Shown: piece by piece, positions 21,556-56,860 of the stretch
How positions within the stretch are numbered: the stretch's first letter is position 1
Layout of the letters: each line of letters starts with the position of its first letter
From: an uncultured Atopobiaceae bacterium
GTDB lineage: Bacteria > Actinomycetota > Coriobacteriia > Coriobacteriales > Atopobiaceae
Assembly (NCBI GenBank): GCA_910579165.1
Contig: CAJTTF010000002.1
Location: 41,746 to 105,745, forward strand
Length of the DNA: 64,000 bases
Direction of reading: 5' to 3'
Notes under the pieces: generated by a model
Seen by the model: the letters and a program-made list of their open reading frames with translations, nothing else
The model's database searches: none
What the model was told of the DNA's origin: nothing
Made by a program: the position numbers and the translations under genes

Positions 21556-22614
21556 TTAGGATGCGCTCTGAGAACGTGGGTGGGCCTGTCGCGCTGCTTC
21601 TTTAAGGCGCTCAACCGATAAATGTGTATAGATTTGTGTTGTTGATAAGCTCGCATGACCCAGAAGTTCCTGGACACTCCGCAAATCCGCTCCTCCTTGG
21701 AGGAGTTCCGTTGCGAACGTATGGCGCATTGTGTGGGGCGTTACAGAAGAAGGAAGCCCTGCCAGTTTAACGATCTTTTCAAAGCGCGTACGAAGTGCAG
21801 CTGGCGACATTGGATTATGTCGCAGAGAGATAAAGAGGCTCCTCTCGTTAAGCTGCAACATATCGGTCGATAGACGGGCCTTGCGAGTGGGACTTACAGG
21901 ACAGCGGTGAGGACGTGCATCTTGAACATATGCACCGATTGCGGCTTTAGCTGACGAATAGAGAGGCACAAGTCGCTCTTTTTTGCCCTTACCATAAAGA
22001 CGGACTGTTCCCTGTTGCAGCTGAATATCATCAAGATGAAGTGCTGCGACTTCAGAAATACGAGCGCCCGTGGCGTACATGAGCTCTATGAGAGCATAGT
22101 CAAGCAATGCTTGATCAAGGGCATCTTGCTGTTCTTTAGTAGGTTTATCGAGAAAGGCAGCCTTTGCATTTTGTATAGCGTCCTGAGTAGCTTTAAGCAT
22201 GCGTCCAACATCTGAATCATGCATAACCTCAGGTAGTTTACGTGAAGATTTTGGCGTGAGCGTTGCTGCGGGTGCATCTTCGGTGGTGTAGCCCTCCAAA
22301 ACAAGCCATTGATAAAAAGATCGAAGAGACGAAAGACGGCGAGCGATTGTTTTGTCGGCATATCGCGACTGGCGTAGATACGCCATGTAGGTGCGAACCT
22401 GAAGGTGCTGCAGTCTAAAAGGGTCAATACGCTGTTTCTGAGCCCATTGAAAGAACAGTTCTAAATCAACCTGGTACGCCTCTATAGTATGTGGCGAAAG
22501 ATTCCTTACGTTTGTAAGATACGTCAGAAACTCCGCCAGGATTCCGTTAAGAGGCGACTCCGTCTTGTGTTTTATGTACTCTTCTTCCCTAGCCATACGT
22601 GTCCATTTACTCAA
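21556..22614 (-). CDS. xerC: Tyrosine recombinase XerC/XerD family
   Basis: C-terminal catalytic block HTMRHTFATELLQGGADLRSVQELLGHASLSTTQIYTH and an upstream ARISE block. The chromosomal position next to rpsB matches actinobacterial xerC. Confidence 0.8.
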   Translation of the reverse strand: MSKWTRMAREEEYIKHKTESPLNGILAEFLTYLTNVRNLSPHTIEAYQVDLELFFQWAQKQRIDPFRLQHLQVRTYMAYLRQSRYADKTIARRLSSLRSFYQWLVLEGYTTEDAPAATLTPKSSRKLPEVMHDSDVGRMLKATQDAIQNAKAAFLDKPTKEQQDALDQALLDYALIELMYATGARISEVAALHLDDIQLQQGTVRLYGKGKKERLVPLYSSAKAAIGAYVQDARPHRCPVSPTRKARLSTDMLQLNERSLFISLRHNPMSPAALRTRFEKIVKLAGLPSSVTPHTMRHTFATELLQGGADLRSVQELLGHASLSTTQIYTHLSVERLKEAARQAHPRSQSAS

Positions 22615-24047
22615 CTATCGCCTAGTAATTCGTCCATAGAATAATTTTTTCTAGAATTTATACTGGATGTTATATGGGAAAATGCAAAAATATCGTCTCT
22701 TGAAGCAACGGTAGAATCTACGCGCCTAAAAGCACGATCTGCGTAGGCATCGTATCGCTCTCGCCTATTCCTGATGGGCGGATCCAACGGGGGCAAAAGA
22801 CCAAAATTCACATGCATCGGTTGATAATTCTTTGTAGAGGGATTGGTTGCATAGGAAATGAGGGCGCCCCAGAGCGAGGTTGATGGCATAAGGAATGATT
22901 GAAGGCCCTGGATGGCTGCGAACGTATTAACGGCGGTATAAAGACCTGATGCGATTGCTTCTACATACCCTTCTGTGCCTGCAATTTGACCGGCAAAGCG
23001 CAAGCGGGGGTTATCTCGGAGGGCAAACGTTGGATCAAAAAGTCTGGGAGCATCAAAGAAACTATTTCGATGCATGACTCCGTAGCGCATAAATGAGGCC
23101 TCTTCAAGCCCGGGAATACGAGAAAAGATGCGTTTTTGCTCGGCAAATGTGAGGTTAGTCTGAAAGCCAACAAGATTGTATGCTGTCCGAGCTTCGTTTT
23201 CTGCTCTCAGTTGAAGAGCAGCATAGGGTCTTTTTCCTGTTCGCGGATCAACAAGACCTACCGGTTTTAGGGGACCGAAGCGAAGAGAATCTATGCCTGT
23301 GCGAGCGATCTCTTCAATCGGCTGGCATGCTTGAAATAATTCCTTGCGTTCAAACTCCTTCTTGATAACGGTTTTTGCCGCACAGAGTTCCTCTACCAAG
23401 GCAATATACTGCTCTTGATTTAGAGGGCAATTGAGATAGTCGCCTTCCACATCTTTCGTTCCTTTTCCCGCAAGCTCATAGCGTGATTGCGCAAAAATTT
23501 GATTAAAGCCAAGCGATGCCGCCTCTACGATAGGGGCTGCAGCATCATAAAAGTGAAGCAAGGATGCCTCTTCCTCATTCAAACGACTTTGGAGGTCTTT
23601 GAGCAAAGAAGGGCTCGTGAGTGGTCCAGTTGCTACAATCACGTATGTATTGTTATCAAGATACTCCTCAAGCGAGGTCACCTCTCCTCTAATTAGCTCA
23701 ATATTGGATTGTGCGCGGATTGCATCTGTAACAGCCTTAGAGAAGAGCTCCCTGTCAACCGCAAGAGCATTGCCTGCAGGAACACGTGTGTCCTCAGCAA
23801 TCTTGAGCAATTCTGAACCCATTAGCTTAAGTTCGCGTTTGAGTGCGCCAGCGGCTGTGGCGCGTTTCTCAGATTTGAGAGAATTTGAGCATACCAACTC
23901 TGCACACTCAGCTGTTTTGTGTGCAGGTGTTGTGGTGCTTGGTCGCTCCTCGTGCAATACGACTGAAATACCTCTTTTGGCAAGTTGGAGCGCACACTCA
24001 GAGCCAGCGAGACCAGCTCCAATAACATGAACAGTATCTGCCATCAT
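22611..24047 (-). CDS. trmFO: Methylenetetrahydrofolate--tRNA-(uracil-5-)-methyltransferase TrmFO
   Basis: VHVIGAGLAGSE FAD motif and the conserved Gid/TrmFO body. The start is uncertain. I use MMADTVHV at 24047, while the track ORF extends to 24197. There is a 4-nt overlap with the xerC start. Confidence 0.85.
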   Translation of the reverse strand: MMADTVHVIGAGLAGSECALQLAKRGISVVLHEERPSTTTPAHKTAECAELVCSNSLKSEKRATAAGALKRELKLMGSELLKIAEDTRVPAGNALAVDRELFSKAVTDAIRAQSNIELIRGEVTSLEEYLDNNTYVIVATGPLTSPSLLKDLQSRLNEEEASLLHFYDAAAPIVEAASLGFNQIFAQSRYELAGKGTKDVEGDYLNCPLNQEQYIALVEELCAAKTVIKKEFERKELFQACQPIEEIARTGIDSLRFGPLKPVGLVDPRTGKRPYAALQLRAENEARTAYNLVGFQTNLTFAEQKRIFSRIPGLEEASFMRYGVMHRNSFFDAPRLFDPTFALRDNPRLRFAGQIAGTEGYVEAIASGLYTAVNTFAAIQGLQSFLMPSTSLWGALISYATNPSTKNYQPMHVNFGLLPPLDPPIRNRRERYDAYADRAFRRVDSTVASRDDIFAFSHITSSINSRKNYSMDELLGDS

Positions 24048-24231
24048 CTCTCTCATCGCTCTCATGAGGGTTAGTTTGCTATAGTCATGGCAGGCAGTAC
24101 TAACGTATACCGCAAAGCACATTCTCTTGGTACCATGCTCACTGGGCGCGTTTATAGTTATGCCAGCTATGCCTACCGATGCATCTAGTACAAGCATACC
24201 TTAAACAACGAGAAAGAAAAGGAGACTGCGC

Positions 24232-24831: not shown

Positions 24832-24860
24832 TAATAAAAAAACCGAGTAATACCCGGCTC
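24832..24860 (-). terminator. Terminator-like hairpin downstream of tRNA-Glu
   Basis: On the minus strand, CCGGG-TATTA-CTCGG (with one G.U pair) is followed by TTTTTTTATT. Confidence 0.45.
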
Positions 24861-24869
24861 AAAAGTTAA

Positions 24870-24946
24870 TGGTAGCCCGTACGAGATTCGAACTCGTGAT
24901 CTCCGCCTTGAGAGGGCGGTGTCCTAAACCGCTAGACGAACGGGCC
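24870..24946 (-). tRNA. tRNA-Glu(CTC)
   Basis: The reverse complement GGCCCGTTCGTCTAGCGGTTTAGGACACCGCCCTCTCAAGGCGGAG...TACGGGCTACCA has anticodon loop CTCTCAA and an encoded CCA. Confidence 0.9.
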
Positions 24947-24961: not shown

Positions 24962-25035
24962 TGGCTGGGATAGAGAGAGTCGAACTCCCATTGACGGAAC
25001 CAGAATCCGCTGTCCTACCATTAGACGATATCCCA
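24962..25035 (-). tRNA. tRNA-Gln(CTG)
   Basis: The reverse complement TGGGATATCGTCTAATGGTAGGACAGCGGATTCTGGTTCCGTC...TATCCCAGCCA has anticodon CTG and an encoded CCA. Confidence 0.9.
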
Positions 25036-25082: not shown

Positions 25083-28000
25083 TTACAAGTCAGAAATAGA
25101 ATTTATCGTCTTTTTCTGATGCCAGAGTTCCTTTAAGGGCTCAAGTAGTTCTATTTCCGCGCGTGCCACAATATCTCTATCCCGTAATGACTCTGTGTTG
25201 TCTGGCGAAGAAAGGCCTTCCTCTGCATATTTAAGAAGCAGGTTGACTATGTCAGACAATTTCTGATTGCCAATTACTGCATTCCATCCCCGTTCCTTCA
25301 ACATAAGAGCAATGTTGGCGGGAGAAGATTCCTCTGATCCTTCGACAAGTAACGAGTATGCTTTGAAAAAGGAGGTCTTGTTATAGAACAGTCCCTTAAT
25401 GAAAGCAGCGAGAGCTAACGCATACTGAGTTGGCATTGCATCTGGCGTTCGTATTTCGAGATATCCTTTAGCACGCACGTCGGGAAATACGAAAGAAGAA
25501 GCATACAGAAGTTCTTCATCCGTAAGAAGCTGTGACGCAAGATACTCCTTGACAGTCCTATGACCCATTTTGTCATTACAAAAGCTGTTATTTTGCTCAT
25601 GTTCTTTGAGATATACGCAAGGCGTATTAAGCAACCATAAGAGGTACGCATCCTCTGGTGAAGACTTATCGAGACCGAGGTCTAGGGCGAGCATACGGTC
25701 CAGGTTTTCCTCATCTTTATCCACAATGGATGGCGTGCTCTCCCCTGCGAACAAGCCACGAGGAATCCGGCAACGAGCCTTGTCAACATTGTTCCAAATG
25801 TCCAAACGCGTCATTGATCCAGTTGTGTCACAAAGAAAGTAGAGATATTGAGAAAGAACAGTCGCCAAAAGGAGTTCCCGACTGAGCCTTCTATGTTCAA
25901 GAAAATCAATTGAAATCTGCGTTGAGGCAGATTCCCGCATCATTTGACGCGATTGCTCCCCTTTCCTGCCAAGGAAAGCATCCATCGCCTTGTAGCGCTC
26001 TTTTGGAAGGAGCGCCGTATCTGAAAGAAGCGTATTCTTAGGATCTACACCTGAAGCTATAAGCTCAACGTTGAGACCAATATCAGAGAAGACTTGCTCA
26101 ATATTTCTATTAAGGAAATCAAACGCCTCGTGCAGACAAATCAAAGAGTTCATTGGACCCAGAGAGATCTCAAGTTGAGCGCCAGGCTCAAGGGTCAGTG
26201 TATACCGTGTGCCATGCGCGCAGTCTTCAGAATCTTGTAGATGGATGTAACCTTCTGCGCCGAGTAGAAGGTTGTCTTCAATCACCGCCTTTGAGCAGCG
26301 GAATTTCTTCAGCCATGCTTCAAGAAATTCCAGGATTCCCGTGTTGTAATGGAGCCTATTCCCCGAATTTTTATCATAAACAAAGCGTTCGAGCTCAATA
26401 CCTATGTTACCTGACCACTGAGGTCGAGGCTCATCCCTATAGTGAAAGTAGATACAGTCGTCGGGGTTTGGAAACAGGAGCTCCTTTAAACGATCAAGAT
26501 TTGCAGAGAGAATCGCATCTGCAGCAACACGCGATAAGTCGTTTGGAGTGTTTTTGGCAGTTCCGCACCAGATGAGTTTTAAAAGAGCCTCTTGAATTCG
26601 AGAAATACCAGGCCCCGATTCAATATGAAAATGATGTTTAATGTCATCGCCGTCCAACGCAAGTTCTGTTGCCATAATTGGGAGAGGCTTTTGCCGAGAC
26701 AATACGCAAGCAGGGCGCTCATGAGAAAGAGAGTCTCGTCGCTCATTCGTGCGAAGGAGCGTCTTTTCAAAGACGTAGGCTTTCTCTGCAGCTATAGCTC
26801 CCGCACGATACCCTTGGGCCTTGGCCGCAGCATCGGCTTCCTGAAGAAGTGCAAGGGGGTACAAAAGCGAATAGGGGTCCTTGGCCTTATGTTGATGCAA
26901 TCCGTGCACGAGTTGCGCAATGTGCAGCGCTGTAGGTTGTGTTTGGCGGTCATGAAAACGTATCAATGCAGATGCACGCTGGCGAATATTTCTGTTGATA
27001 CCGAGTTGCTTCATTATCTTATTAGCAATGTATGCACTAACGGAGGGATGGTTATAGAAGTGCATGGTCTCCGGTGAATCTGGATTTGGATCGAGAAACA
27101 TAACCGACGGCTTGCCGATATCATGAAAAAGGGCTGCAAGCCCAAGTTCGGCAGGGATGCGAAATTGTTCTGGCGTATCAGAAATACCTGCGAAGATTTG
27201 GAGATAATCGATGACACTAGCTGTATGCTGAAGAATATCCAGATTGTGATACGGAGTTTTTTGAGGATAGCCGTCTAGCCCTGCAAGCTCTGGGATGGAG
27301 GCACAAAGAACGCCTTTATACTGGCGTAACGCTTTAGAAAACCATCGAGTCCTCACGAGTTTCGCTAACTCGTTGCCTATCCGCTCAGCGCTGAGCGAAG
27401 AAAGGGAGCGCACTTCCTGCTCTATTGTTCGCTTTAAACTCGCTTCTAGTTGAAAGTTGAATGCGCACGAAAACCGGACAGCACGAAGGATGCGCAGCGC
27501 GTCTTCTCGGATGCGAGCACAGGAGTCGCCCACCGTACGAATCAAGCCCTGTTTAATATCTTTTCTACCACAAAACGGATCAAGAATCCCTCGACAAGGA
27601 TGGAAGGCCATAGCGTTCATCGTGAAGTCGCGTCGCCTGAGATCTTCTTGAATCGACTGTCCAAAACGTACATTCTTTGGATGTCTTTTATCGCTATAAA
27701 AATCCTCTGCCCTGAACGTGGTTATATCGAGAAATTTTCTGCCTAAGAACCGTTTTGAAAATCTAGGTGAGACTATGGCCGCCTTAATTTCAGAACTGTT
27801 ACAAACGGAAGAGAACGAAGCACTGTTGGTGGATGTGGCAGCGCGTTCATTGGGGTATGCCTTCTGAATGGTATTCAGAAGCTGCACCTTAATAGTCCCA
27901 TAGCGCTCACCTTGATCGACGAGTGCGCAGGCCGCCTTTGAAAAGACTTGCTTTATCTCCTCTGGTGCGGCGTTTGTGGCGACATCAACGTCATCTGAGG

Positions 28001-28112
28001 ATAGCCCCAGAAGCTGATCGCGCACCCAGCCTCCTACAATCCACGCTTCAAAACCAGCGTCCTCAAGGAGATGAAGCGCCAAGGACGCATCCGCGGGCAG
28101 CGCTTGTACCAT
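25083..28112 (-). CDS. Fusion protein: CCA-adding tRNA nucleotidyltransferase plus HD domain (N-terminal about 590 aa), then a glutamate--cysteine ligase-like domain (C-terminal about 450 aa)
   Basis: The N-terminal part has GGWVRDQLLG..DVDVAT, RRDFTMNAMA and EDALRILRAVRF, the class II nucleotidyltransferase motifs. The HD domain has LFHDIGKP and RFHD. The C-terminal part has IGIELERF, TLEPGAQLEISLGP, LPKERYKAMDAF, QMMRESASTQISIDF, DIWNNVDKARCRIP and FPDVRAKGYLEIRTPD. These parallel the conserved blocks of plant/proteobacterial-type GCL. Start placed at MVQALPAD (28112), 24 aa before the GG motif. The track ORF extends to 28262 and would overlap yigZ. Confidence 0.8.
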   Translation of the reverse strand: MVQALPADASLALHLLEDAGFEAWIVGGWVRDQLLGLSSDDVDVATNAAPEEIKQVFSKAACALVDQGERYGTIKVQLLNTIQKAYPNERAATSTNSASFSSVCNSSEIKAAIVSPRFSKRFLGRKFLDITTFRAEDFYSDKRHPKNVRFGQSIQEDLRRRDFTMNAMAFHPCRGILDPFCGRKDIKQGLIRTVGDSCARIREDALRILRAVRFSCAFNFQLEASLKRTIEQEVRSLSSLSAERIGNELAKLVRTRWFSKALRQYKGVLCASIPELAGLDGYPQKTPYHNLDILQHTASVIDYLQIFAGISDTPEQFRIPAELGLAALFHDIGKPSVMFLDPNPDSPETMHFYNHPSVSAYIANKIMKQLGINRNIRQRASALIRFHDRQTQPTALHIAQLVHGLHQHKAKDPYSLLYPLALLQEADAAAKAQGYRAGAIAAEKAYVFEKTLLRTNERRDSLSHERPACVLSRQKPLPIMATELALDGDDIKHHFHIESGPGISRIQEALLKLIWCGTAKNTPNDLSRVAADAILSANLDRLKELLFPNPDDCIYFHYRDEPRPQWSGNIGIELERFVYDKNSGNRLHYNTGILEFLEAWLKKFRCSKAVIEDNLLLGAEGYIHLQDSEDCAHGTRYTLTLEPGAQLEISLGPMNSLICLHEAFDFLNRNIEQVFSDIGLNVELIASGVDPKNTLLSDTALLPKERYKAMDAFLGRKGEQSRQMMRESASTQISIDFLEHRRLSRELLLATVLSQYLYFLCDTTGSMTRLDIWNNVDKARCRIPRGLFAGESTPSIVDKDEENLDRMLALDLGLDKSSPEDAYLLWLLNTPCVYLKEHEQNNSFCNDKMGHRTVKEYLASQLLTDEELLYASSFVFPDVRAKGYLEIRTPDAMPTQYALALAAFIKGLFYNKTSFFKAYSLLVEGSEESSPANIALMLKERGWNAVIGNQKLSDIVNLLLKYAEEGLSSPDNTESLRDRDIVARAEIELLEPLKELWHQKKTINSISDL

Positions 28113-28125
28113 TTCATTGAACGAA

Positions 28126-28791
28126 CTATGACTCACCGTGCACCTCTCCGTAAGCGCTACCTTCATTTTCGAGCGAGATTTCTCGACGAAAAACATCTTG
28201 AAAGGATTCATTAAAGCTGCTGGCATTAGAAGATGGCACCGCACAACGAAGTTTAATCTCATCTTCGTAACTGCGATTGATTATTGTTCCTTTGCAGGAT
28301 TTAAGTAGGTGTTCAAATGTTTTCATATGCTTATAAGAAAGCGATGTACAAAAAATTGATTGCTTTTGAACAACGCAAAGGACGCCCTCCTCCGCTGCGT
28401 CCTTAAGTGCATCCCTTGCGCACCCAGCATATGCGCGTTTAAGGCCCCCCGGACCCAAGAGAATACCTCCAAAATAGCGCACAACGCACACACATACATT
28501 CACCAGGCCTTCACCTCGTAAAACCTCAAGCACCGGAAGACCTGCTGTCTGAGAGGGCTCACCATCGTCACAGGATCTCTCATGGATAGCGTCTGCATCA
28601 TCGAGAATTCGCCAGGCATATACAACATGTCGAGCATCAAGATTATCGTGAGAAATGGCCTCATAGAAAGACTTGGCTTCTTCTGGAGAAGCCACCGCTT
28701 TTACTAGGGCAATAAATCGACTTTTGCGGTCAACAAGGGAGCCTTTTGCTACTTTCCCCTTGCGGATGCTGTTAAATACCTGCGTTTCCAT
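28126..28791 (-). CDS. yigZ: IMPACT/YigZ family protein
   Basis: DRKSRFIALV, an HVVYAWR block, DDGEPSQTAG and VVRYFGGILLG motifs. Start moved to METQVF (28791), because the longer ORF to 28872 would overlap the rnpB 5' end on the opposite strand. Confidence 0.8.
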   Translation of the reverse strand: METQVFNSIRKGKVAKGSLVDRKSRFIALVKAVASPEEAKSFYEAISHDNLDARHVVYAWRILDDADAIHERSCDDGEPSQTAGLPVLEVLRGEGLVNVCVCVVRYFGGILLGPGGLKRAYAGCARDALKDAAEEGVLCVVQKQSIFCTSLSYKHMKTFEHLLKSCKGTIINRSYEDEIKLRCAVPSSNASSFNESFQDVFRREISLENEGSAYGEVHGES

Positions 28792-28810: not shown

Positions 28811-29200
28811 GCGAAGGAACCTAGACGATTGCGCCATTTCCTCCACAGGGTGACTCTATCGGTGTCAAGCAATTAAGGCTGGTAGATAAATACATCCATG
28901 GCTGGATATGGTGAGGAAAGTCCGGGCTCCACAGGGCAGGATGCCAGGATGAGCCTGGGCGGGGCAACCCGACGGAAAGTGCCGCAGAAAAGAAAACTCT
29001 CACTGGCGTGCAAACGCTAAGAGAAAAGCTGAAAAGGTGGTGTAAGAGACCACCAGCGTCGCAGCAATGTGACGGCTTGGTAAACCCCATTCGGAGCAAG
29101 ACCAAATAGGAACGCTACGCATTTGCCCGATGCGCGTTCGGGTTGGTCGCTAAGATAAATAATCGTCCTCGACAGAACCCGGCTTACAGGTTCCTTCGTC
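28811..29200 (+). ncRNA. rnpB: RNase P RNA, bacterial type A
   Basis: GAGGAAAGTCCGGGCTCCACAGGGCAGGATGCCAGG (P4 5' strand), GGTAAACCCCATTCGGAGCAAGACCAAATAGG, and ACAGAACCCGGCTTA (P4 3' strand). P1 pairs CGAAGGAACCT (28812..28822) with AGGTTCCTTCG (29188..29198). P2 pairs GACGATT with AATCGTC. Confidence 0.9.
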
Positions 29201-29336
29201 TCTTTTGATATCAGATTAAGCGTCCAATGAAATCGAGTCTTCTGCGAAATCAGCGGCTCATTGATACTTGATGGGCCCAGAACTGGACGCCCGGCGAGAT
29301 TAGGCTGATATGATATCAATGGCTTGTTTGCTGAGA

Positions 29337-35857: not shown

Positions 35858-38800
35858 CTACGGAATTATGGGGTGGCTAATACGCGCAACAAGTTCCTCA
35901 GCAGGCGCAGAGAGGACCCATGACTTAAAAGCTGCAAAAGACTCTTTGAGGCGCTCCCCTTCTAAAAAGAATACAGAGTCTTCGAGAGAGACCGGCTGAG
36001 CGGATTTTTGGTCCGCAATATACAATGTTCTCTGCTCTCCCCTTCCCTCAATGCGTACAAGACCCAGTTCTTTAAAGATGGAAAGACCTTGATCCACAAG
36101 CGTGCCATCGAGGAGGCCATTGTCGGAAAGGTAGGCGGCGTACTCACCAATCTCAGGATTAGAGGCGTGTAAGACATTTGGAGGGGTTTGAGTTTGTTTC
36201 CCTTCCATTGTCTTAATCGTGCGAAAGAGCAATCCCAATGTTTCTTTGTTAGGCGCAACGTTTTGCAGTATTCCTTCGTTAATACACGCATCATCTTCGC
36301 CAAAAAGCAGATAGATATGAGCATCGTCTCCATCTCTGCCTGCGCGCCCCGACATCTGATTGAATTCCGTAGCACCAAACGGAAGATGATAGAGGATGAT
36401 TTGACGAATATCTGGTATGTTCACGCCTTCGCCAAAAGCGCTGGTTGATACGATAGTTTTTAGAGTGTTCTCGCGAAAATTCTTTTCTATTGCCATGCGT
36501 TCTGCGCGAGAAAGACCAGCATGGTAGAAAGCAATCTGATGAGCAATCTCTGGGCAATGCTGTCTGAGTAGCTTGCAAAGCGTTTCAGCTTGACCGCGCG
36601 AATTAACGTAGACGACCGTTTTGATCCCGCAATAAACACGATCAATGAGAAAGCTTTCCTTAGGTGTTAGTCCTGATTCATCATCAATGCGCTCAAAAAG
36701 AGAGCGTTCTGCATGATCGATGTTGCGATAGTCTTCAAGAATGAGGTTCTCTCGACAGGTGTTATCGGAAAGAGTGAGCTCTATGTTAAAAAGACGCCCA
36801 ATTTCAGCAGCTTCTTCTTTTCCAACAGTTGCAGAAACGCATAAGACCGTAGGCGCTCCGAGAAGGTTTTGCACGCGCGGTAAATCTTGATAGGCAAAAC
36901 GATTTCCACCTTTAGAAGCGCCCGCGTGATGCGCTTCGTCAATCACCAGAAAGTCTATTCGGTTCGTCTCGGCAAAGCGCTTTGCGTTAAGGGATAAAAA
37001 TTCTGGAGTTGTAAGAACGATATCAACAGTGCCCGTCTTTAAGCCATCATAAGTGATTTCGCGCTGCTCATCATCTGTTTCGCCCGTCAGAAGCGCCACG
37101 CTGAGGCCAAATTGCGCCAGGGCATTCTCTAGATGGAAAACTTGATCGTTTACGAGAGCTCGAAGAGGAAATACAAAAACACTGGCGCGTCGCGCGGCAA
37201 GTGCAATTCTCGCGGCATGGATTTGAAAGATGAGTGACTTTCCCCTACCCGTAGCCATAATGGCGAGCGTGTTATTACCGTCCTCAAGGGATGCGAGTGT
37301 CTCTTCCTGGATGGGAAGGAAAGTGTTCTCACCGATAAAAGCCTGACGCAGCTGCTGTGTAAGATGCGTGGTGTCGGGTGCGAAAAGGTCCCTAATGAGC
37401 AGTTGTGGGTGCACGGTATTTCTCCAACTATTCAGCGTTGGTTCAAATACCACATCAAAAATTGAACCAGGTGGGACTTCCGCGAGATGTGCGGGCGGAT
37501 AGAAATAGACACCGTCAAGTGCGACATCGGAGGAGATCTCCGTCATACGCACCTTCATGTGGGCCCTTTCTTGACCAATGCGCTTTAAGGTCAATAGGCT
37601 TATGCGAGGCGTTATGAAGAGCGGATATGGGTTTCCTTTCCCAAAGGGCCGCAAGGCCGCAAGGCCTTCGATGTTGGAAACAGTTAGCTCACGAAAAGAT
37701 ACTTCACCCGTAATCTCAATGCTTTCAGCAAAGGCAGAAGCAGGAAGGGTCTCAAGATAGGTGTTGAGCGCTTGTTGAAATGCAGAAACTTGACTTCTAT
37801 TGATCGTAAGTCCAACGGCATTTTTGTGGCCTCCAAAACGCACGAGATAATCAGAACAGGCAGCCACCGCTTGCATGAGGTCCACGGACCCTATTGACCT
37901 TCCAGAGCCCTTTCCAACGTCTTCAGCAAAAGATATGAGGATGCACGGTCGCTGGAACTGATGTGCCAAGCGCGAGGCAACAATTCCTTTTACCCCCTCA
38001 TACCAATCATCGGCCGCCAGTATAAGCACACGCGTATTGGGCGACTCCTTCAGAATTTCCTCTGCCTGGAAGCATGCCTTTTCTTGCATGTCTTTTTCTA
38101 GAGCCTTGCGCTCTGTGTTCAGCTCTTGGATTCTCTCAGAAAGATTTATCGCCTCTTCTTTATCCTTAGTCAAGAGGAGTTTAAATGCTGTCTCCACATC
38201 CCCCATTCTGCCTGCGGCGTTTAGCCGAGGAATAACGGAAAACGGTAATTCGTCAGCCTGTAGGTTCTTTGGGTTAATTTTAAGAAGCTTAAGAAGTGCC
38301 GCGAGGCCTGTGCGAGGATTGCTTTGAATGCAGTTCATACCTTCAACGACAAGTGCACGGTTCTCAAAATCAAGATCCATAACGTCGCCAACTGTGCCCA
38401 AAGTTCCTAAGTCGCAAAAGCACTGCCAGTAATCATCTTGCACTCCCGCAAACAGGCGAGAAGCTCTCTCATCACTCCTACTCAAGAGCTGAAGCGCATG
38501 CAGCAGTTTTAGGGCGACCCCAGCGCCACAAAGATTCTGTCCGGGTCCAGAAGGGTTAAGTTTTGGATCGATAACGGGAACGCCCTGTGGCACGAGTTCA
38601 TCAGGTACATGATGGTCGCTTACGATGACTTCAACACCTGCATCTAGCAGGCTATTAACCTCCTCAGCAGCAGCAATACCATTGTCTACGGTCAGAAGAA
38701 GCTCGGGGTGATTTTTTGCTAACAGATGTTCGACTGATGCCTTGGAAAGGCCGTATCCTTCGCTAAAACGATCTGGAATATACCAATCAACCTGAACACC

Positions 38801-39139
38801 CAACCCCTCTAATGCAAGGACAATAATGGCCGTTGCTGTCATGCCGTCAACGTCAAAATCACCATAAACAGTGATGCGCTTCCTTTTATCAATAGCGTCC
38901 AAAAGAGCCCTGGCACCCACCTCCATGGAGGGAAGCAAGAAAGGATCTGACCAATCGCGCTTAAGAGAAGGATGAAGAAAACGCTCGATTTCCGCATCAT
39001 CGGTCCACCCGTGGTTTGCAAGCGTACGCGCCGCAAGGGGCGAGAGACCAAACGTGTCACACAGCTTAGCCTCTCGATCGGGACGTGGTTTTAGTAATTT
39101 GTAGCTTTTATCCGAGGAGTTCTGCGACATCGGTTGCAA
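35858..39139 (-). CDS. recJ: Fusion protein: RecJ single-stranded-DNA 5'-3' exonuclease (N-terminal about 600 aa) plus a RecQ-like superfamily 2 helicase core (C-terminal about 490 aa)
   Basis: The RecJ part has GDFDVDGMT, VSDHH (DHH) and FGGHKNAVG (DHHA1). The helicase part has ATGRGKSLIFQ (motif I, near 37240..37260), VIDEAHH (motif II, 36926..36946), VSAT, and YHAGL..AER...E..F.......IVSTSAFGEGVN.PDIRQIILYHLP....EFNQMSGRAGRDG. It is a single uninterrupted 1093-aa frame. Confidence 0.85.
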   Translation of the reverse strand: MQPMSQNSSDKSYKLLKPRPDREAKLCDTFGLSPLAARTLANHGWTDDAEIERFLHPSLKRDWSDPFLLPSMEVGARALLDAIDKRKRITVYGDFDVDGMTATAIIVLALEGLGVQVDWYIPDRFSEGYGLSKASVEHLLAKNHPELLLTVDNGIAAAEEVNSLLDAGVEVIVSDHHVPDELVPQGVPVIDPKLNPSGPGQNLCGAGVALKLLHALQLLSRSDERASRLFAGVQDDYWQCFCDLGTLGTVGDVMDLDFENRALVVEGMNCIQSNPRTGLAALLKLLKINPKNLQADELPFSVIPRLNAAGRMGDVETAFKLLLTKDKEEAINLSERIQELNTERKALEKDMQEKACFQAEEILKESPNTRVLILAADDWYEGVKGIVASRLAHQFQRPCILISFAEDVGKGSGRSIGSVDLMQAVAACSDYLVRFGGHKNAVGLTINRSQVSAFQQALNTYLETLPASAFAESIEITGEVSFRELTVSNIEGLAALRPFGKGNPYPLFITPRISLLTLKRIGQERAHMKVRMTEISSDVALDGVYFYPPAHLAEVPPGSIFDVVFEPTLNSWRNTVHPQLLIRDLFAPDTTHLTQQLRQAFIGENTFLPIQEETLASLEDGNNTLAIMATGRGKSLIFQIHAARIALAARRASVFVFPLRALVNDQVFHLENALAQFGLSVALLTGETDDEQREITYDGLKTGTVDIVLTTPEFLSLNAKRFAETNRIDFLVIDEAHHAGASKGGNRFAYQDLPRVQNLLGAPTVLCVSATVGKEEAAEIGRLFNIELTLSDNTCRENLILEDYRNIDHAERSLFERIDDESGLTPKESFLIDRVYCGIKTVVYVNSRGQAETLCKLLRQHCPEIAHQIAFYHAGLSRAERMAIEKNFRENTLKTIVSTSAFGEGVNIPDIRQIILYHLPFGATEFNQMSGRAGRDGDDAHIYLLFGEDDACINEGILQNVAPNKETLGLLFRTIKTMEGKQTQTPPNVLHASNPEIGEYAAYLSDNGLLDGTLVDQGLSIFKELGLVRIEGRGEQRTLYIADQKSAQPVSLEDSVFFLEGERLKESFAAFKSWVLSAPAEELVARISHPIIP

Positions 39140-40274
39140 TCATTAGCTCTTCGTTGGTGGGAACGACAAGAACGTGAATCGAAGAATCTGGAGTAGAAAT
39201 CTCGCGTACTGCATCCGAACGCACAAGATTTTTCTTTTCGTCAAGCTTAAGGCCTACCCAGACAAGGTTGTCGCAAATCATCTTACGCACTTCATGGGAA
39301 TTTTCACCCACGCCAGCCGAGAATGCCAACGTATCCCACCCTTGCATCGATTGAGCCATTTCCATTATAAGCTGGCCAGCTCTGTAGGCATACATGGCAA
39401 GAGCGAGCTGCGCATTCGTGTCGCCTTTCTCGGCGCCGGCACAAACATCGCGTACATCAGACGAGATTTCAGAAAGCGCAAGCAAGCCCGATTCCTTATT
39501 CATCATCGTATCAACTTCGTCAACGGAATAGCCGCCCTCGCGTTGAAGATAGACTACCGTAGCTGGATCAATAGTACCTGTGCGCGTGCCCATAATGAGA
39601 CCATCTAGTGGCGTAAGTCCCATGGTTGTTTCTATGGACTTGCCATCGTGGATTGCGCAAAGCGAAGCGCCTGAGCCAATATGAGCGCTAACGATTTTAT
39701 GCGTCTTATCACCCATGAATTCCTTGGTAGCACGCCAAATATAACGATGTGATGTGCCGTGAGCACCGTACTTTCTAATATGAAGCTCATCAGTCACTTT
39801 GCGCGGCAGAGCATAGCGCCAGGCCACTTCGGGCATATCAAAGTGAAACGCCGTATCGGGAACAATGACGTTACCTATTTCAGGAAAGCTCTTTTGACAT
39901 ATTTCAATAACATCAGCTTCAGCATAATTGTGAAGCGGTGCAAGAGGCGCAACTTCACGCACTTTTGCAAGTGCTTCCGGTGTAGCAATGGCAGACTCCG
40001 GGAAGTAAACGCCTCCCATCACTACACGATGACCGATGCCGTCTATCTTTATATCTTGCTCTTTAAGAAGATCAAAGACTTCTTGGACGGCTGCTTTGTG
40101 ATTGGGAAGATCGAGATCAATTTTGCGCTTCTCGCCAGCAGCCTCATGAGTCACGAAGGCATTCTTAAGGCCAATTCTCTCGCAATTTCCCTTAGCAAAG
40201 ACCTTTGCAGTGTCTACATCTATGAGCTGATACTTTAGGCTTGAGGATCCTGCATTAATAACGAGTACATTCAT
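39108..40274 (-). CDS. ackA: Acetate kinase
   Basis: VLVINAGSSSLKYQL, GHRVV.GG, and the HGTSH and EELMIA regions. Confidence 0.95.
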   Translation of the reverse strand: MNVLVINAGSSSLKYQLIDVDTAKVFAKGNCERIGLKNAFVTHEAAGEKRKIDLDLPNHKAAVQEVFDLLKEQDIKIDGIGHRVVMGGVYFPESAIATPEALAKVREVAPLAPLHNYAEADVIEICQKSFPEIGNVIVPDTAFHFDMPEVAWRYALPRKVTDELHIRKYGAHGTSHRYIWRATKEFMGDKTHKIVSAHIGSGASLCAIHDGKSIETTMGLTPLDGLIMGTRTGTIDPATVVYLQREGGYSVDEVDTMMNKESGLLALSEISSDVRDVCAGAEKGDTNAQLALAMYAYRAGQLIMEMAQSMQGWDTLAFSAGVGENSHEVRKMICDNLVWVGLKLDEKKNLVRSDAVREISTPDSSIHVLVVPTNEELMIATDVAELLG

Positions 40275-40288
40275 CTATAAATCCTTTC

Positions 40289-40630
40289 CTAACACATTTT
40301 TTCCGAGAGGGGCTCTCCACCCACTATGTGGAAATGGAGGTGATTTACCGTTTGCCCTGCGTCTTTGCCGGTGTTGGTGATAACACGAAAACCTCCGTCG
40401 TTTAAACCTTTAATCTTTACTACCTTCTTGATTCCTCTATGAAGCGCTTCAAGAGTAGAGGCATCAAGGTCCTCAAGGATGTTGTCGTAATGGTTCTTTG
40501 GTATCAGCAAAACATGTACCGACGCTTGCGGGCCGATGTCATCTATAGCGAAAACCTTATCGTCTTCGTAGAGTATTTCTTTTGGAGGAATCTTTCCACT
40601 TGCCATATTGCAAAAGAGGCAATCTTCCAT
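40289..40630 (-). CDS. HIT family protein (histidine triad nucleotide-binding)
   Basis: CLFC..., and the HLHFHIVGG histidine triad. Confidence 0.9.
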   Translation of the reverse strand: MEDCLFCNMASGKIPPKEILYEDDKVFAIDDIGPQASVHVLLIPKNHYDNILEDLDASTLEALHRGIKKVVKIKGLNDGGFRVITNTGKDAGQTVNHLHFHIVGGEPLSEKMC

Positions 40631-40670
40631 GGTTTCTCCTTTTAGTAACTATTGGTAGTACTTCCCATGG

Positions 40671-42496: not shown

Positions 42497-42501
42497 ATTC
42501 T

Positions 42502-43211: not shown

Positions 43212-44384
43212 TTATTTTAGCCTAACCTCACCGTCATGAACGTAGAGGCCAGCTCGACCGGTAAGAATATTTTTCATGGGTCTGCCTGCGATTTCCCAGC
43301 GCCAACCCGTAAATAGGCGAGAATCCTCGTCTTCGCGAATAAAATTGATGATGTCATCTTTGCTCGCAAGAACCGCAGGGGCTATTTGCTCTTTCTCGGA
43401 AAGAACGCGTACATACGAAAAGAGCAAATCAACAACTGCCTGGGTGCCCCTTGGATCCTTTTGTTGCTGCGGAGCATCTTCCTCAGGATGGAATGGATTT
43501 TTCCGCGCAGTTTCAGCGATGCGGGCAATCTCCTCAACATCTCGTTCGTTCAAATGCGAGGTGGAACGTATCTTTCTGATCTTGTCAGGAGTAGGCCTTC
43601 GAAGATGCGCAATGGAAAGAACCACCTCATCAGCAAGAACGGATCTCCTGGGCTTATTAAGGGATTGCGCACGCTCTTCGCGCCATGTGGCTACCTCTTT
43701 TGCTACGACAAGCTCCTTTGGTCGAAGAGAGCTAATGCGTTTAATGTGGCGATAAGCGCTCGCGCTGTCTTCGTGTTCTTTGGCACGAACAATTTCGTCT
43801 TGAAATTCAGGAAGAACCCAGCTATAACGTCCCAAATTGAGCAACTTTTGTTTCATGGCATCGTAGATTTTCGGAAGATACTTAACGTCATCTAGAGCAT
43901 AGCGAATCTGCGAAAGATCGAGCGGGCGGCGCGTCCAATCAGTGAGCGAGGATGCCTTGGGGAGCGTAATGTGCAAGTACTTCTCGACGAGAGCGCCATA
44001 GCCAATTTGTATTTGTGTTGAGAGGAACGCCTCAGCTATCTGCGTATCAAAAATAGGCGTTGGCAAATCACCAAACAGGAGCTCGAGAACTTCTAAGTCC
44101 TGAAAACCTGCATGCAAGATTTTGGTTTTTGCAGAATCGAAAAGAACGTCGTTAATTGAGCTTTTTAACGCATCCGCAGAAAGCGTCCTCACGTCCAATG
44201 CGAACTGATTCGAATGAGTTCCAACTTGCAACAGGCATGGAAGCGGATAATACGTTCTCTCACGTATAAACTCTGTATCGATAGCAATAACAGGAGCCGC
44301 AGTCAAACACTGAGCCACTTCATCAAGCTTTTGGGGTGTGTCAATTACGCGCGTCTGCTCTCGCATTGTTGAGGGCCTTTCCAA
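43212..44384 (-). CDS. rnd: Ribonuclease D (DEDD 3'-5' exonuclease plus HRDC domain)
   Basis: IAIDTEF (ExoI), ILHAGFQDLE (ExoII), YALDDVKYL (ExoIII), then an HRDC-like region. Confidence 0.85.
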   Translation of the reverse strand: MERPSTMREQTRVIDTPQKLDEVAQCLTAAPVIAIDTEFIRERTYYPLPCLLQVGTHSNQFALDVRTLSADALKSSINDVLFDSAKTKILHAGFQDLEVLELLFGDLPTPIFDTQIAEAFLSTQIQIGYGALVEKYLHITLPKASSLTDWTRRPLDLSQIRYALDDVKYLPKIYDAMKQKLLNLGRYSWVLPEFQDEIVRAKEHEDSASAYRHIKRISSLRPKELVVAKEVATWREERAQSLNKPRRSVLADEVVLSIAHLRRPTPDKIRKIRSTSHLNERDVEEIARIAETARKNPFHPEEDAPQQQKDPRGTQAVVDLLFSYVRVLSEKEQIAPAVLASKDDIINFIREDEDSRLFTGWRWEIAGRPMKNILTGRAGLYVHDGEVRLK

Positions 44385-53608: not shown

Positions 53609-54337
53609 TCAGCCAGTGTTAAAAAGCTTGACCATTTTTACAATGGTACCCGGACCATTAATCTTCTTCTTGATTCTCACGTTATCAACAAGCATCCGCA
53701 TTATCCTAATACCGCGTCCGTGATCAAGCGTCTGAGGAGGCAGCTCGTCTTGGCCAATCTCATAGCCAGGTCCATCATCAACGACTTCGATGTTGATACG
53801 ATCATCAAAGACCTCAATCGTTACAAAACCGATTTTACTGGGGGTGTGAAGAACGACATTCCCGCACGCCTCCCCCGTAGCAAGTGTTAGATCAAAGACC
53901 TCGTCCGTACTCAAAGGAAGTTGTTGGAAAAAGGAGCGAAGTTCTTCTCGGGCGAACTCTAAAGAGCGTTCGTCAATTCTGAGGGCATAGCGATTGCGTG
54001 GAAGTGTTCCTTTGGGAAGCGGCTTAATCTCAATTCGGGACTTTTTAGGGATGGTGGGGATTATATCAAGAAGGCGCCCCAGGCGTAGTTTTTTTAAGAT
54101 AGGCTCTGAAACGTTACAGAAGGTAAGCGTACCGCCTGTACACTGCATGTCTTTAAACTTATTAATAATGACCGCGAGCCCCGAGGAGTCTAGATAGGTT
54201 ACCTGATCAAAATCGAGAATGACTCGTTTGACGCCGCCTCTTTGCATCGCATCGAGGTGTGCTTTTAGAGCGGGTGCCGTTGCGAAGTCAATGGAGCTTC
54301 GCAAAGGAACAAGCATGCAATCAGTGATTATGAGCAT
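53609..54337 (-). CDS. Fused STAS (anti-sigma-factor antagonist, SpoIIAA/RsbV-like) and HATPase_c (anti-sigma serine kinase, SpoIIAB/RsbW-like) protein
   Basis: The N-terminal STAS has the phospho-acceptor motif YLDSSGLAVI. The C-terminal part has the N-box GEACGNVVLH, G1 VVDDGPGY and G2 HGRGIRIM. 242 aa in one frame. Confidence 0.8.
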   Translation of the reverse strand: MLIITDCMLVPLRSSIDFATAPALKAHLDAMQRGGVKRVILDFDQVTYLDSSGLAVIINKFKDMQCTGGTLTFCNVSEPILKKLRLGRLLDIIPTIPKKSRIEIKPLPKGTLPRNRYALRIDERSLEFAREELRSFFQQLPLSTDEVFDLTLATGEACGNVVLHTPSKIGFVTIEVFDDRINIEVVDDGPGYEIGQDELPPQTLDHGRGIRIMRMLVDNVRIKKKINGPGTIVKMVKLFNTG

Positions 54338-54490: not shown

Positions 54491-56860
54491 TTACGCAGCA
54501 TAAGCATCAAAACGGAGACACATAAGAGCAATGTCATCATCAAGATCATTTTGAGAAAAGGCGTAGAGCTCCTTAAGGATAATTTCGGGAATCTCTTCGG
54601 CAGGACTATCAAAATGCTTCATGAGGGCATCGTGAAGCGATAGCTCACCAAAGAACTCGCCCGTCGTAGGCCTTCTCGCCTCAATGGCGCCATCGGTATA
54701 GAGAAGAAGTTGATCTCCAGGTTCCAAAGTTGCATGCCCGTTCTCGTAAATAATCTCACGGAAGGCCCCTACAACACCAGACTGCTTATTGAGCAACTCC
54801 AGCTTTCCCGTCTTGGGCCGCATCACAATTGCGGGTGGATGTCCTGCAGAACAATAAACAAGCTTTCCTGTCTTCATATCAAGAATGCCAACAAATAGCG
54901 TTGCAAACGTTTCCAGCCGAGAAAACCCTAAGAAGAAATCGTTGAGGGAGCGCACCATATGAGCGGGAAGAAGTCCTTCCCAGGCATAAGCGCCAAGAGC
55001 AGTGCGCACGGCCGAGGAAATAGCGGCAGAACCAACGCCCTTTCCCGCGACATCGCCCATGATGATACACGCCTTCTGATTAGGAAGCGCAATGACATCG
55101 TAGAAGTCACCGCCAATTTCCGTTGCCTTGGTAGCAGAATTGTAAAGAGGAACGACCGTAAGGCCCTCAACTTTCTGTGTCTGATTCTCAAGTCCGGCTT
55201 GCAATATTTTGCTGACATAAATGTCTTGGGCAGCGCGATTCTTATCGCGAACAAACAGACAAGCGTCCTGTAAAAAACGCTTATACAGGGTAATTTCAAT
55301 ATGCGAAAGAGGTTCCTCCCCCACAAAATGACCAATTGCAACGGTATGGCGTTTTCCAAGAATCTCAGGGATAACAAATACCGCGCCTACAAGCGGTTTA
55401 CCAAAGACGGCAGCGGTCCATGACGAGAGAATCGAGCCTTCGCCAAAGGGGATCACCGTAACATCAGAAAGCGCACCTTCAAAGGTTTCCAGCATTTCCC
55501 GAATCTCTTCTTCTGGGTGTTCACGTTTGCTTGTCTTACGGTAGGCCTCGTTTTCGATAAGCTCGCGGTACATATCTGCAAGCGTAAAGTCGATATGATG
55601 AAAGACCTTCTCGTTGACCACAGCCGTGCACTCGCCATTCTCATCATTTTTGTAAAAAGCGAGGTACTGAGCATCGAATACGTTTGCATATTTATGGAAC
55701 AGCTTTTGGATATCAGGTTCTATGAGCGTTCCCTGTTGATTTCGCAACGACACCCACATAGCCTCGCTCGTTTGTTGGATTTCATCGGAGCTATTTGTGT
55801 GCATTGAGACAGAGGCGGTGACGAGCTCGTCTGCGTAGTGAGCCGAAAGCAGATCAAGCACGCGAGCGGATTGAGGAGAAAGCTTTGTCTTTCCCTCCCA
55901 TCCAACGATGGTGAACGCAACGACCGTGCCATCAAAAATCACAGGTACGATATAGAACGAGCTCAAAGGAGGGGCAATGTTCGTGGCTATTTTATGTGTC
56001 GTCTTTTCTGATGAAGACTCAGCAAGAAACAAATAGGGCGAGCGCGATTTGGGGCCAGTTCGCGTGTAGCGAACGGTTGATTGATGCTTCATGGCAAGCT
56101 CTGCAAGTGGATCATCTGCGGGAAGATAACCAGGAATATTGTCTTTGTTTAATATGCCCTTACAGCCCTTGAGATGATATCCCTCCGCGTCTGCGAGAAA
56201 GACTCCGGCGCCCTCTGCATCGGTTGCACCCATGAGCTCAGATGACAGTACGCTGTAAATGCCTGAAGGGTCGCCGGATCCAACCGCTTTCACCAACTCC
56301 GACAAGATCCTTTCATTCCCTGAATAACTGGCGACCTCAAGCGCGTCTTTCTCAAGCGTTTCAGTTTGGGGTAATGAATCTTGCTCCCCCGTCTGTGGCA
56401 CTTTAGGAGTCGTTGCGCTTGCGAGCGAATGAATTGCAACTTCAACGGAAGTATCGCTTATTTCCTGCTTCGATTCGTTAGACAAAATTGCTAGAAACAC
56501 CACGCGCTTCTTCTCCCCTACGCCCAGCGCACGAACTTCAACGGGTAAGCATTGAGCGCTATGCGGCACTCTCAACATCATTTTCTGTTTGGTGCCATCA
56601 TGTGTAAAAGGAAGATGGCCTCTGCCTATTGGCTTACCTTCGGGCGAAACAAGCAGTGTTTTGATGTTGGCGTTTAGGATCTTTGGGAGCGAAAGCTCGC
56701 AAAGAGCAGAAAAATTCTTATTAGCCACGAGAATATTGCCATCCTCATCGCATCCACAGAGCGCATCCGATGAGATTGAAAAGAGAGTAACAAGCCCTTC
56801 TGAGGAGAACAAATCAGAAAGATCTGTCTGGTGTTTAAATAATGGGCGCCACGTTGCCAT
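54491..56860 (-). CDS. PAS/GAF sensor-containing PP2C (SpoIIE/RsbU-type) serine phosphatase
   Basis: The C-terminal PP2C has IGGDFYDV, MGDVAGKGVGSA, LLLYTDG and DDDIALMCL. The N-terminus is PAS-like (ALCGCDEDGNILVANKNF), and a central GAF-like region follows. Confidence 0.85.
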   Translation of the reverse strand: MATWRPLFKHQTDLSDLFSSEGLVTLFSISSDALCGCDEDGNILVANKNFSALCELSLPKILNANIKTLLVSPEGKPIGRGHLPFTHDGTKQKMMLRVPHSAQCLPVEVRALGVGEKKRVVFLAILSNESKQEISDTSVEVAIHSLASATTPKVPQTGEQDSLPQTETLEKDALEVASYSGNERILSELVKAVGSGDPSGIYSVLSSELMGATDAEGAGVFLADAEGYHLKGCKGILNKDNIPGYLPADDPLAELAMKHQSTVRYTRTGPKSRSPYLFLAESSSEKTTHKIATNIAPPLSSFYIVPVIFDGTVVAFTIVGWEGKTKLSPQSARVLDLLSAHYADELVTASVSMHTNSSDEIQQTSEAMWVSLRNQQGTLIEPDIQKLFHKYANVFDAQYLAFYKNDENGECTAVVNEKVFHHIDFTLADMYRELIENEAYRKTSKREHPEEEIREMLETFEGALSDVTVIPFGEGSILSSWTAAVFGKPLVGAVFVIPEILGKRHTVAIGHFVGEEPLSHIEITLYKRFLQDACLFVRDKNRAAQDIYVSKILQAGLENQTQKVEGLTVVPLYNSATKATEIGGDFYDVIALPNQKACIIMGDVAGKGVGSAAISSAVRTALGAYAWEGLLPAHMVRSLNDFFLGFSRLETFATLFVGILDMKTGKLVYCSAGHPPAIVMRPKTGKLELLNKQSGVVGAFREIIYENGHATLEPGDQLLLYTDGAIEARRPTTGEFFGELSLHDALMKHFDSPAEEIPEIILKELYAFSQNDLDDDIALMCLRFDAYAA

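Follow-up and report, generated by a model that had tools for sequence, protein, structure and literature searches.

A rare in-frame fusion of a CCA-adding enzyme and a glutamate-cysteine-ligase-like domain in Coriobacteriia

Why should one reading frame encode both a tRNA 3'-end repair enzyme and a ligase of the kind that begins thiol biosynthesis? The question is raised by a gene, here called cca::gcs2, on the minus strand of a 64,000-nucleotide stretch of contig CAJTTF010000002.1 (this whole stretch is referred to as the window) from an uncultured member of the Atopobiaceae, a gut/oral-type actinobacterium of the class Coriobacteriia. A preliminary description, made from the sequence alone, had recognized a complete CCA enzyme followed by a glutamate-cysteine ligase (GCL)-like domain, and had offered two explanations, a simple co-expression fusion or an ATP-dependent ligase that acts on tRNA 3' ends or is regulated by them. 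The fusion of a CCA enzyme with a domain of the GCS2 family is real, rare and old. Its product is probably bifunctional, with two activities that are expressed together but work independently, and would have arisen by fusion of neighboring genes.

The minus-strand frame is open throughout 25083..28262. Translation from the ATG at 28112 gives the uninterrupted product of 1009 aa first described (the strand is added here), and the residue numbers of its parts refer to this version. A Shine-Dalgarno sequence (GGAGAGG, 28149..28143) precedes a GTG at 28136 with a 6-nt spacing; because this spacing and a 1017-aa copy of the protein in the databases (P0001) agree, the GTG is favored over the ATG and is probably the true start. 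The gene and its parts are:

25083..28136, minus strand: cca::gcs2 fusion gene, 1017 aa from GTG 28136; stop codon 25085..25083
27243..28112, minus strand: head and neck of the CCA enzyme, residues 1-290 (PolyA_pol match, motifs, model)
27732..27884, minus strand: Ser/Asn-rich insertion of ~50 aa in a loop of the head domain, residues 77-127, lineage-specific
26778..27242, minus strand: HD phosphohydrolase/body domain, residues 291-445 (Pfam HD; H296, H330-D331, H387-D388, D427)
26478..26777, minus strand: tail of the CCA enzyme, residues 446-545 (helical in the model; shares homology with the tail in the stand-alone cca product of locus L017)
26403..26477, minus strand: linker, residues 546-570 (poorly conserved, with varying length and sequence, no internal Met, predicted local distance difference test score, pLDDT, 48-57)
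25086..26402, minus strand: plant-type (group 3, Pfam GCS2) GCL-like domain, residues 571-1009 (GCS2, TIGR01436, profile of Protein Data Bank entries, model)

That two genes have been joined artefactually, by a frameshift or in a chimeric contig, has practically no probability left to it: independent assemblies and diverged lineages that keep the frame rule it out. Five contigs, drawn from NCBI, ENA and Logan, encode this protein without any difference (P0001), one of them a 204-kb contig of an NCBI assembly. A sister-species cluster (P0002) at 84% identity has 24 members, of which the 15 listed are each present on 1-11 contigs. Six further fusion lineages, at 35-55% identity, have kept the same single frame with differing linkers. 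At the junction itself, where a frameshift or a division into two genes had been thought of, independent assemblies carry a single frame, as do lineages whose identity has fallen to 35-48%.

Judged by its motifs and its predicted fold, the segment comprising residues 1-545 is a complete HD-type class II CCA-adding enzyme. (The preliminary description was right about completeness and about the HD domain, which Pfam, motifs and fold all bear out, but placed the end of this half at ~590 aa; it ends at ~545.) The Pfam family PolyA_pol (PF01743) matches at 2.3e-33, above its gathering score, and HD (PF01966) at 7e-6, with 26.7 bits against a cut-off of 22. The best NCBIfam match among CCA tRNA nucleotidyltransferases, NF009814 (4.9e-69), reaches 233.3 bits and narrowly misses its equivalog cut-off of 290, partly because the head insertion splits the match in two; the model for the poly(A) polymerase pcnB scores lower (133.5 against a cut-off of 305.65). 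All of the motifs quoted in the preliminary description (GGWVRD..DVDVAT, RRDFTMNAMA, EDALRILRAVRF, LFHDIGKP and RFHD) are present in the translation. The nucleotidyltransferase set, which is conserved in 8 of 8 fusions, consists of motifs A (GGWVRD..DVDVAT), B (RRDFT) and D (EDALRILRAVRF) along with the third catalytic carboxylate (DITTFR) and the flexible loop (YSDKRHP); in this enzyme class the residues of motif D (EDxxRxLRAxRF) template the nucleotide, and addition of A76 requires the loop. These motifs, together with the HD residues, are invariant among 74 HD-type cca homologues. In the tail region, the tRNA_NucTran2_2 family is found in the orthologues P0004, L006 and P0135.

The nearest proteins of solved structure, by sequence, are the class II CCA-adding enzymes of Planococcus halocryophilus (6IBP) and Geobacillus stearothermophilus (1MIV), at 1e-46 to 1e-41, with the poly(A) polymerases at 1e-25. 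These CCA-adding enzymes, which form the closest solved family, share with the window protein motifs A, B and D, the flexible loop, and the same head-neck-body-tail fold (template modeling, TM, score 0.76-0.78, normalized to target length). The two halves of the protein have been modeled separately, and each yields a confident model. For the N-terminal AlphaFold model the pLDDT is 84.6, exceeding 90 in the head and neck outside the insertion; Foldseek matches it to 1MIV with an expectation value (E) of 4.5e-19 and TM 0.58/0.78 (0.78 being the value normalized to target length), and its top 46 matches are all CCA-adding, A-adding or poly(A) polymerase enzymes. The HD domain is also common to the window protein and the multifunctional, HD-bearing Cca of E. 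coli. What sets the window protein apart from class II CCA-adding enzymes is a C-terminal extension of 464 aa, which amounts to a whole second enzyme, and the disordered head insertion of ~50 aa. The latter is predicted to be disordered on the basis of a pLDDT below 50 at residues 89-123, and it occurs only in the window species and its sister, being absent from P0003, the L017 cca product and P0146.

Residues 571-1009 are, by sequence blocks and predicted fold, a complete GCS2 ligase-like domain, a distant relative and not an equivalog of GCL by NCBI criteria. As with PolyA_pol and HD, the Pfam match is above the gathering score (GCS2, PF04107: 2.2e-11, 44.1 bits against a cut-off of 21). On the other hand, the plant-type GCL model TIGR01436 (1.2e-26) gives 93.2 bits, far below its equivalog cut-off of 463.15, and the EgtA model TIGR03444 gives 74.4 bits where its equivalog cut-off is 370.8. 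A profile built from the four closest fusions aligns end to end with the plant GCL structures 2GWC and 6GMO (Brassica juncea) at 7e-30, with the blocks ExE, LEPGxQxE, PKxRY, MMRxxxxxQxxxD, RxxIWxxxDxxR and FPxVRxKxxxExRxxD in register, so that the block-by-block correspondence first proposed holds. The sequences quoted for it (IGIELERF, TLEPGAQLEIS, LPKERYKAM, QMMRESASTQISIDF, DIWNNVDKARCRIP and FPDVRAKGYLEIRTPD) are all in the translation; IGIELERF lies one base away from the position originally assigned to it (26382..26405 instead of 26383..26406). ExE and LEPGxQxE are the metal-binding glutamate blocks of GCL. The catalytic blocks are conserved in all fusions in the alignment. In a set of 80 family sequences, 23 positions are conserved in 95% or more, and the window domain has every one of them. 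Conserved residues that are specific to the fusions, and rare in stand-alone relatives, come to only two, L702 and Y758, neither of them in a catalytic motif.

The C-terminal model (pLDDT 87.6, predicted TM-score 0.91) matches 2GWC with E = 1.6e-22 and TM 0.78/0.82. YbdK is the next-best fold match (TM 0.44/0.57), and PafA/Dop, yeast GCL and E. coli GCL are far weaker. The likeness to the group 3 (plant/alpha-proteobacterial) enzyme thus extends to all of its blocks and to its fold, at ~20% identity and with the difference that the window ligase is joined to a CCA enzyme. Its clade, moreover, comprises proteins of anaerobic Firmicutes and Coriobacteriia that are annotated as GCL and are putative members of that enzyme family.

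Polypeptides that combine a GCL module with another enzyme are known in the form of GshF/GshAB, and the present analysis adds GCS2 proteins fused to circularly permuted ATP-grasp domains (P0140, P0153). There the GCL module is joined to the enzyme that acts next in its pathway, whereas the partner in the window protein is a tRNA enzyme without pathway relation. No GshF/GshAB-type ATP-grasp module is found in the window protein (Pfam, NCBIfam) or in the scanned window open reading frames (all those called of at least 150 aa). Another parallel to the architecture is provided by other cca fusions of Gram-positive anaerobes (cca-NUDIX of Leptotrichia, cca-GlmM, cca-thiamine pyrophosphokinase, cca-GNAT, HAD-cca and cca with a class II aminoacyl-tRNA synthetase fragment), which have the same HD-type cca backbone and, as in the window protein, a complete unrelated enzyme joined to it, usually at the C-terminus. 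The window type differs from these in its GCS2 partner, in having diverged to 35-48% identity, and in the loss of HD in one branch.

Selection on the two enzymes has been compared by dN/dS (the ratio of nonsynonymous to synonymous substitution rates) between the window gene and that of the sister species (L002). The head and neck have a ratio of 0.157, the HD domain 0.174 and the GCL domain 0.160; being nearly equal, these values imply that both enzymes are maintained by purifying selection to the same degree. The linker (0.44) and the head insertion (0.60) are under relaxed constraint.

How widely is this architecture spread? In an exhaustive HMMER search with a profile of the ligase domain against 1.84 billion representative proteins (E up to 1e-3), 2417 GCS2 relatives were recovered, and in just 6 representatives does the domain stand behind a CCA enzyme: P0002 (the window's cluster), P0003, P0004, P0135, P0138 and P0146. 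The full-length fusions P0003 and P0004 have 55% and 45% overall identity to the window protein, and a further fusion of 931 aa is encoded in a Coriobacteriaceae metagenome-assembled genome (MAG; locus L006). Two types can be distinguished. Type 1 (window, P0002, P0003, P0004, L006 and P0135) retains the HD domain, with the metal residues H296, H330-D331, H387-D388 and D427, and is always located behind yigZ. Type 2 (P0138 and P0146, 800-843 aa; genes at L013 6001..8403 and L014 6001..8532) has lost all of the HD metal-binding residues and kept the nucleotidyltransferase and ligase motifs. Its setting is also different: the type-2 gene has pepC (a C1 peptidase) on one side and a YegS-like kinase gene on the other, after which come rnd, xseAB and ackA. 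The same ackA..xseA..rnd..YegS block is present in the window at 39108-45395, with no cca there.

All named relatives are Coriobacteriia (Coriobacteriaceae, Atopobiaceae, Olsenella and Collinsella), and the pairing of cca with GCS2 is seen only in this class. By this sequence-based survey the fusion is confined to a subclade of Coriobacteriia, in which it is ancient. A literature search on fusions of CCA enzymes with glutamate-cysteine ligases and on the thiols of Coriobacteriia found no relevant paper. Thus, the C-terminal half does match the GCL families, the gene is one and not two, and the architecture is neither common nor, in the literature searched, described. It is a new domain architecture, each half of which comes from a known superfamily, and not a new kind of system.

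The view that both families are normally stand-alone enzymes needs to be softened. Close GCS2 relatives are fused to ATP-grasp domains, and HD-type cca has many partners elsewhere: thiamine pyrophosphokinase, GNAT, HAD, GlmM, NUDIX, GntR, a metallo-beta-lactamase fold and a class II aminoacyl-tRNA synthetase fragment. Since cca fuses with many unrelated enzymes, a cca fusion is weak evidence of functional linkage. (An instance from the same cca clade is P0005, a 608-aa protein in which an HD-type CCA enzyme is joined to the C-terminal part of a class II aminoacyl-tRNA synthetase core and an HGTP anticodon-binding domain.)

The relationships of the two halves have been examined in neighbor-joining trees of trimmed alignments with 100 bootstraps. 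In the ligase-domain tree the 8 fusions form one clade (98/100), within which type 2 receives 100 and type 1 receives 63. Because the GCS2 parts are monophyletic at 98/100, a single ancient fusion event is, on the evidence of this tree, the source of all known cca::gcs2 genes. The sister of the fusion clade consists of stand-alone Coriobacteriia GCS2 proteins, including that of Olsenella uli (joint clade 63/100), and the next group is made up of GCS2 proteins fused to circularly permuted ATP-grasp domains. In the latter (P0140 and P0153, neither encoded in the window), an N-terminal GCS2 domain is followed by a long C-terminal extension with a weak, below-cut-off match to circularly permuted ATP-grasp; P0159 (Pfam: GCS2 only), P0164 and P0169 are grouped with them by length and tree position, and the group as a whole spans 878-991 aa. 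P0140/P0153-like proteins may be undescribed analogues of the bifunctional glutathione synthetase GshF.

Unfused relatives show what the locus was like before the fusion. On a JGI contig (L100), a stand-alone cca of 471 aa begins 7 nt behind yigZ, and Collinsella sp. zg1085 (L099) has, in this order, yigZ ... pepC, cca (464 aa), tRNA-Gln(CUG) and two copies of tRNA-Glu(CUC). Because the same flanks surround these unfused cca genes and the fusion, the fused gene is, by synteny, the orthologue of the housekeeping cca at an ancestral Coriobacteriia locus yigZ-cca-tRNA-Gln-tRNA-Glu. An adjacent but unfused pair is provided by L017, in which pepC and cca (517 aa) are followed, after a gap of 164 nt, by a separate GCS2 gene; its product (P0282) is the closest stand-alone relative in a word-indexed protein search, at 36% identity. 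A second such pair was sought and L017 remains the only one: the GCS2 gene of L101 (P0136) is not beside cca, and those of L018, L008 and L007 lie in unrelated contexts. At the loci examined, the stand-alone Coriobacteriia GCS2 genes have no conserved neighbor and no adjacent gshB or other glutathione-related gene. (The product of one of them, L007 5500..7245 in an Atopobiaceae MAG, is a GCS2 protein of 581 aa whose N-terminus is extended by ~230 aa without a Pfam match.) The simplest history would start with a GCS2 gene that came to sit 3' of cca; the intervening stop and start would then have been lost once, in one ancestor of the subclade. Later rearrangements of the locus would have taken separate courses in types 1 and 2, the latter also losing HD.

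The surroundings of cca::gcs2 in the window include several genes and sites that bear on its expression and on its connection with tRNA:

28874..29202, plus strand: RNase P RNA gene rnpB (Rfam RF00010, 218.8 bits), divergent from yigZ
28126..28791, minus strand: yigZ (IMPACT/UPF0029 and DUF1949, by Pfam; 221-aa database copy P0390)
24962..25035, minus strand: tRNA-Gln(CUG) (ARAGORN, Rfam), 47 nt past the stop of the fusion gene, CCA encoded
24870..24946, minus strand: tRNA-Glu(CUC) (ARAGORN, Rfam), CCA encoded
24840..24860, minus strand: terminator-like hairpin and T-run after tRNA-Glu, suggestive (the scan overall is at chance, with 8 sites against 5.5 expected)
22611..24197: trmFO, downstream of cca::gcs2
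43212..44384: rnd, also within the window

There is an overlap of 11 nt between the end of yigZ, with its TAG stop, and the GTG start of the fusion gene. At every type-1 fusion locus and at the unfused locus L100, yigZ is directly upstream of cca, with an overlap of 4-11 nt or a gap of 7 nt (its coordinates are L006 3473..4393, L012 62..967, L004 37..690, L005 154..801 and L100 7001..7639). This arrangement of a putative translationally coupled yigZ-cca operon hints that bacterial YigZ may work on tRNA 3' ends or in translation. Downstream, no terminator-like site was found between the fusion stop and the tRNA genes in the scan, which is overall at chance level; within the gene, counts of promoter-like (25273..25246, minus strand) and terminator-like (25935..25912, minus strand) sites are not above the expectation from shuffled sequence. 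The gene order suggests a mixed mRNA-tRNA transcript, yigZ-cca::gcs2-tRNA-Gln-tRNA-Glu, that might end at the hairpin at 24840..24860.

The tRNA-Gln/tRNA-Glu pair is found behind the fusion in L001, L002 and L006. A tie between these tRNAs and the ligase (GatB-like amidation, or use of Glu-tRNA) was considered and rejected: the same pair follows the stand-alone cca of Collinsella sp. zg1085 (L099 12791..13076), and is therefore a feature of the cca locus, not of the ligase. CCA is already encoded by each of the nine tRNA genes of the window, and for this reason the CCA half would, by analogy with E. coli, serve tRNA repair and not maturation. With cca, rnpB, trmFO and rnd, the window region is rich in tRNA-processing genes. 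Among the scanned reading frames of the 64-kb window there is no ATP-grasp/gshB, glutaredoxin, glutathione S-transferase or similar gene, which agrees with the earlier remark that a gshB-like partner is absent. A metagenome scan with an alignment of the neighboring LOG protein gave 80 loci at no more than 49% identity, none with cca, GCS2, yigZ or trmFO nearby.

What might the fused protein do? Of the two explanations first offered, co-expression is the one that the evidence favors, and it accounts for all of the observations; the tRNA-acting or tRNA-regulated ligase has gained no support. The N-terminal module would rebuild damaged 3'-CCA ends of tRNA. The C-terminal module would use ATP to activate the gamma-carboxyl group of glutamate for ligation to an amine, most probably that of cysteine, to yield gamma-glutamylcysteine. 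The two active sites would operate independently, and the fusion would mainly secure 1:1 co-expression, in an operon that includes yigZ and perhaps the two tRNAs as well; general knowledge offers as a possible rationale the joint recovery of an anaerobe from oxidative damage, by thiol supply and tRNA-end repair. If the halves are indeed independent, cca::gcs2 is a neat case of neighboring genes that fused long ago, and it provides a clade-specific marker for this subgroup of Coriobacteriia. The presence of a plant-type GCL in anaerobic Coriobacteriia, with no gshB nearby in the loci examined, also raises the question of which low-molecular-weight thiol these bacteria use.

Several considerations weigh against this interpretation. 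Cysteine is predicted to be the acceptor from motifs and fold, with scores that lie far below the equivalog cut-offs, and glutathione-related genes, gshB included, were found neither among the scanned reading frames of the window nor beside the stand-alone Coriobacteriia homologues. The survival of the fusion through deep divergence and a changed genomic context (type 2) would fit selected functional coupling as well. The phylogeny is that of neighbor-joining trees of trimmed alignments, and in the CCA-domain tree, which is weakly resolved, the fusions group with the L017 cca and P0005 (60-64/100). Finally, the genome is visible over 64 kb, and a second cca or GCL gene may exist elsewhere in it.

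The first of these considerations touches on the identity of the ligase. The C-terminal module might be a GCS2-superfamily carboxylate-amine ligase with another acceptor or donor, fused just as independently, and its product another gamma-glutamyl compound or a peptide. Scores far under the GCL and EgtA equivalog cut-offs, an identity to plant GCL of only ~20%, the absence of gshB near any locus examined, and a sister clade fused to circularly permuted ATP-grasp in place of a classical glutathione synthetase would all fit such an enzyme. We nevertheless regard it as unlikely, for none of the conserved blocks of plant GCL is missing along the whole length of the domain, the fold is far nearer to GCL (TM 0.8) than to YbdK (~0.5) or PafA (~0.4), and clostridial homologues bear the name glutamate-cysteine ligase in their source records (annotation, not experiment). 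A different doubt concerns the CCA half, which could be a degenerate, catalytically dead RNA-binding appendage that regulates or localizes the ligase. The loss of HD motifs in type-2 fusions, the disordered 50-aa insertion in the head of the window protein, and the narrow miss of the NCBIfam CCA equivalog cut-off (233 against 290 bits) point in that direction. With motifs A, B and D, the third carboxylate and the loop intact in 8 of 8 fusions, with a dN/dS of 0.16, and with the gene occupying the orthologous cca locus, however, a dead CCA half is very improbable.

Mechanistic coupling of the two modules would be the most novel of these readings. The CCA module would recruit tRNA, and the ligase would either act on a tRNA-borne substrate or be switched by the state of the tRNA 3' end; gamma-glutamylation of aminoacyl-tRNA, or the use of a tRNA-bound amine, is one conceivable form, and damaged or uncharged tRNA as a stress signal that controls thiol synthesis is another. 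Enzymes of the glutamine synthetase (GS)/GCL fold such as PafA and Dop can ligate macromolecular substrates, and these two are among the fold matches of the ligase half. The long retention of the fusion, to 35-48% identity and in two genomic contexts, is consistent with coupling, as are the adjacent unfused cca-GCS2 pair in L017 and the tRNA-processing surroundings of the gene (the yigZ overlap, rnpB, the two downstream tRNAs and trmFO). On the other hand, the active site of the ligase cannot be told apart from that of its stand-alone relatives, the only two fusion-specific residues being outside the motifs; the linker is variable and relaxed; the tRNA-Gln/tRNA-Glu pair is also behind the unfused Collinsella cca; sister-clade GCS2 genes lie in unrelated contexts (Olsenella uli, L007, L018 and L101); and cca joins many unrelated enzymes. 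Taken together, coupling appears improbable. The same small chance is given to its specific form, in which tRNA held on the CCA module gates the gamma-glutamyl ligase or presents a tRNA-borne amine or carboxylate to it. Were coupling nevertheless true, it would be the first link of tRNA 3'-end surveillance to thiol or gamma-glutamyl chemistry, and the upstream, IMPACT-family yigZ would belong to the same tRNA-sensing unit, which would provide a handle on the function of bacterial YigZ/IMPACT proteins, cca operon partners throughout Coriobacteriia; with a tRNA-borne substrate, the ligase would be a previously unknown tRNA-dependent enzyme of the GS/GCL fold.

Two further loci in the window, apart from cca::gcs2, are worth noting. 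A minus-strand reading frame of 1093 aa at 35858..39139 comprises a complete RecJ (DHH, DHHA1 and RecJ_OB) and a DEAD/Helicase_C helicase core, an unusual nuclease-helicase fusion. At 53609..54337 (minus strand) is the gene for a 242-aa protein with STAS and HATPase_c_2 anti-sigma kinase domains; beside it, at 54491..56860 (minus strand), a 789-aa SpoIIE-type phosphatase is encoded, and the two make up a compact partner-switching module.

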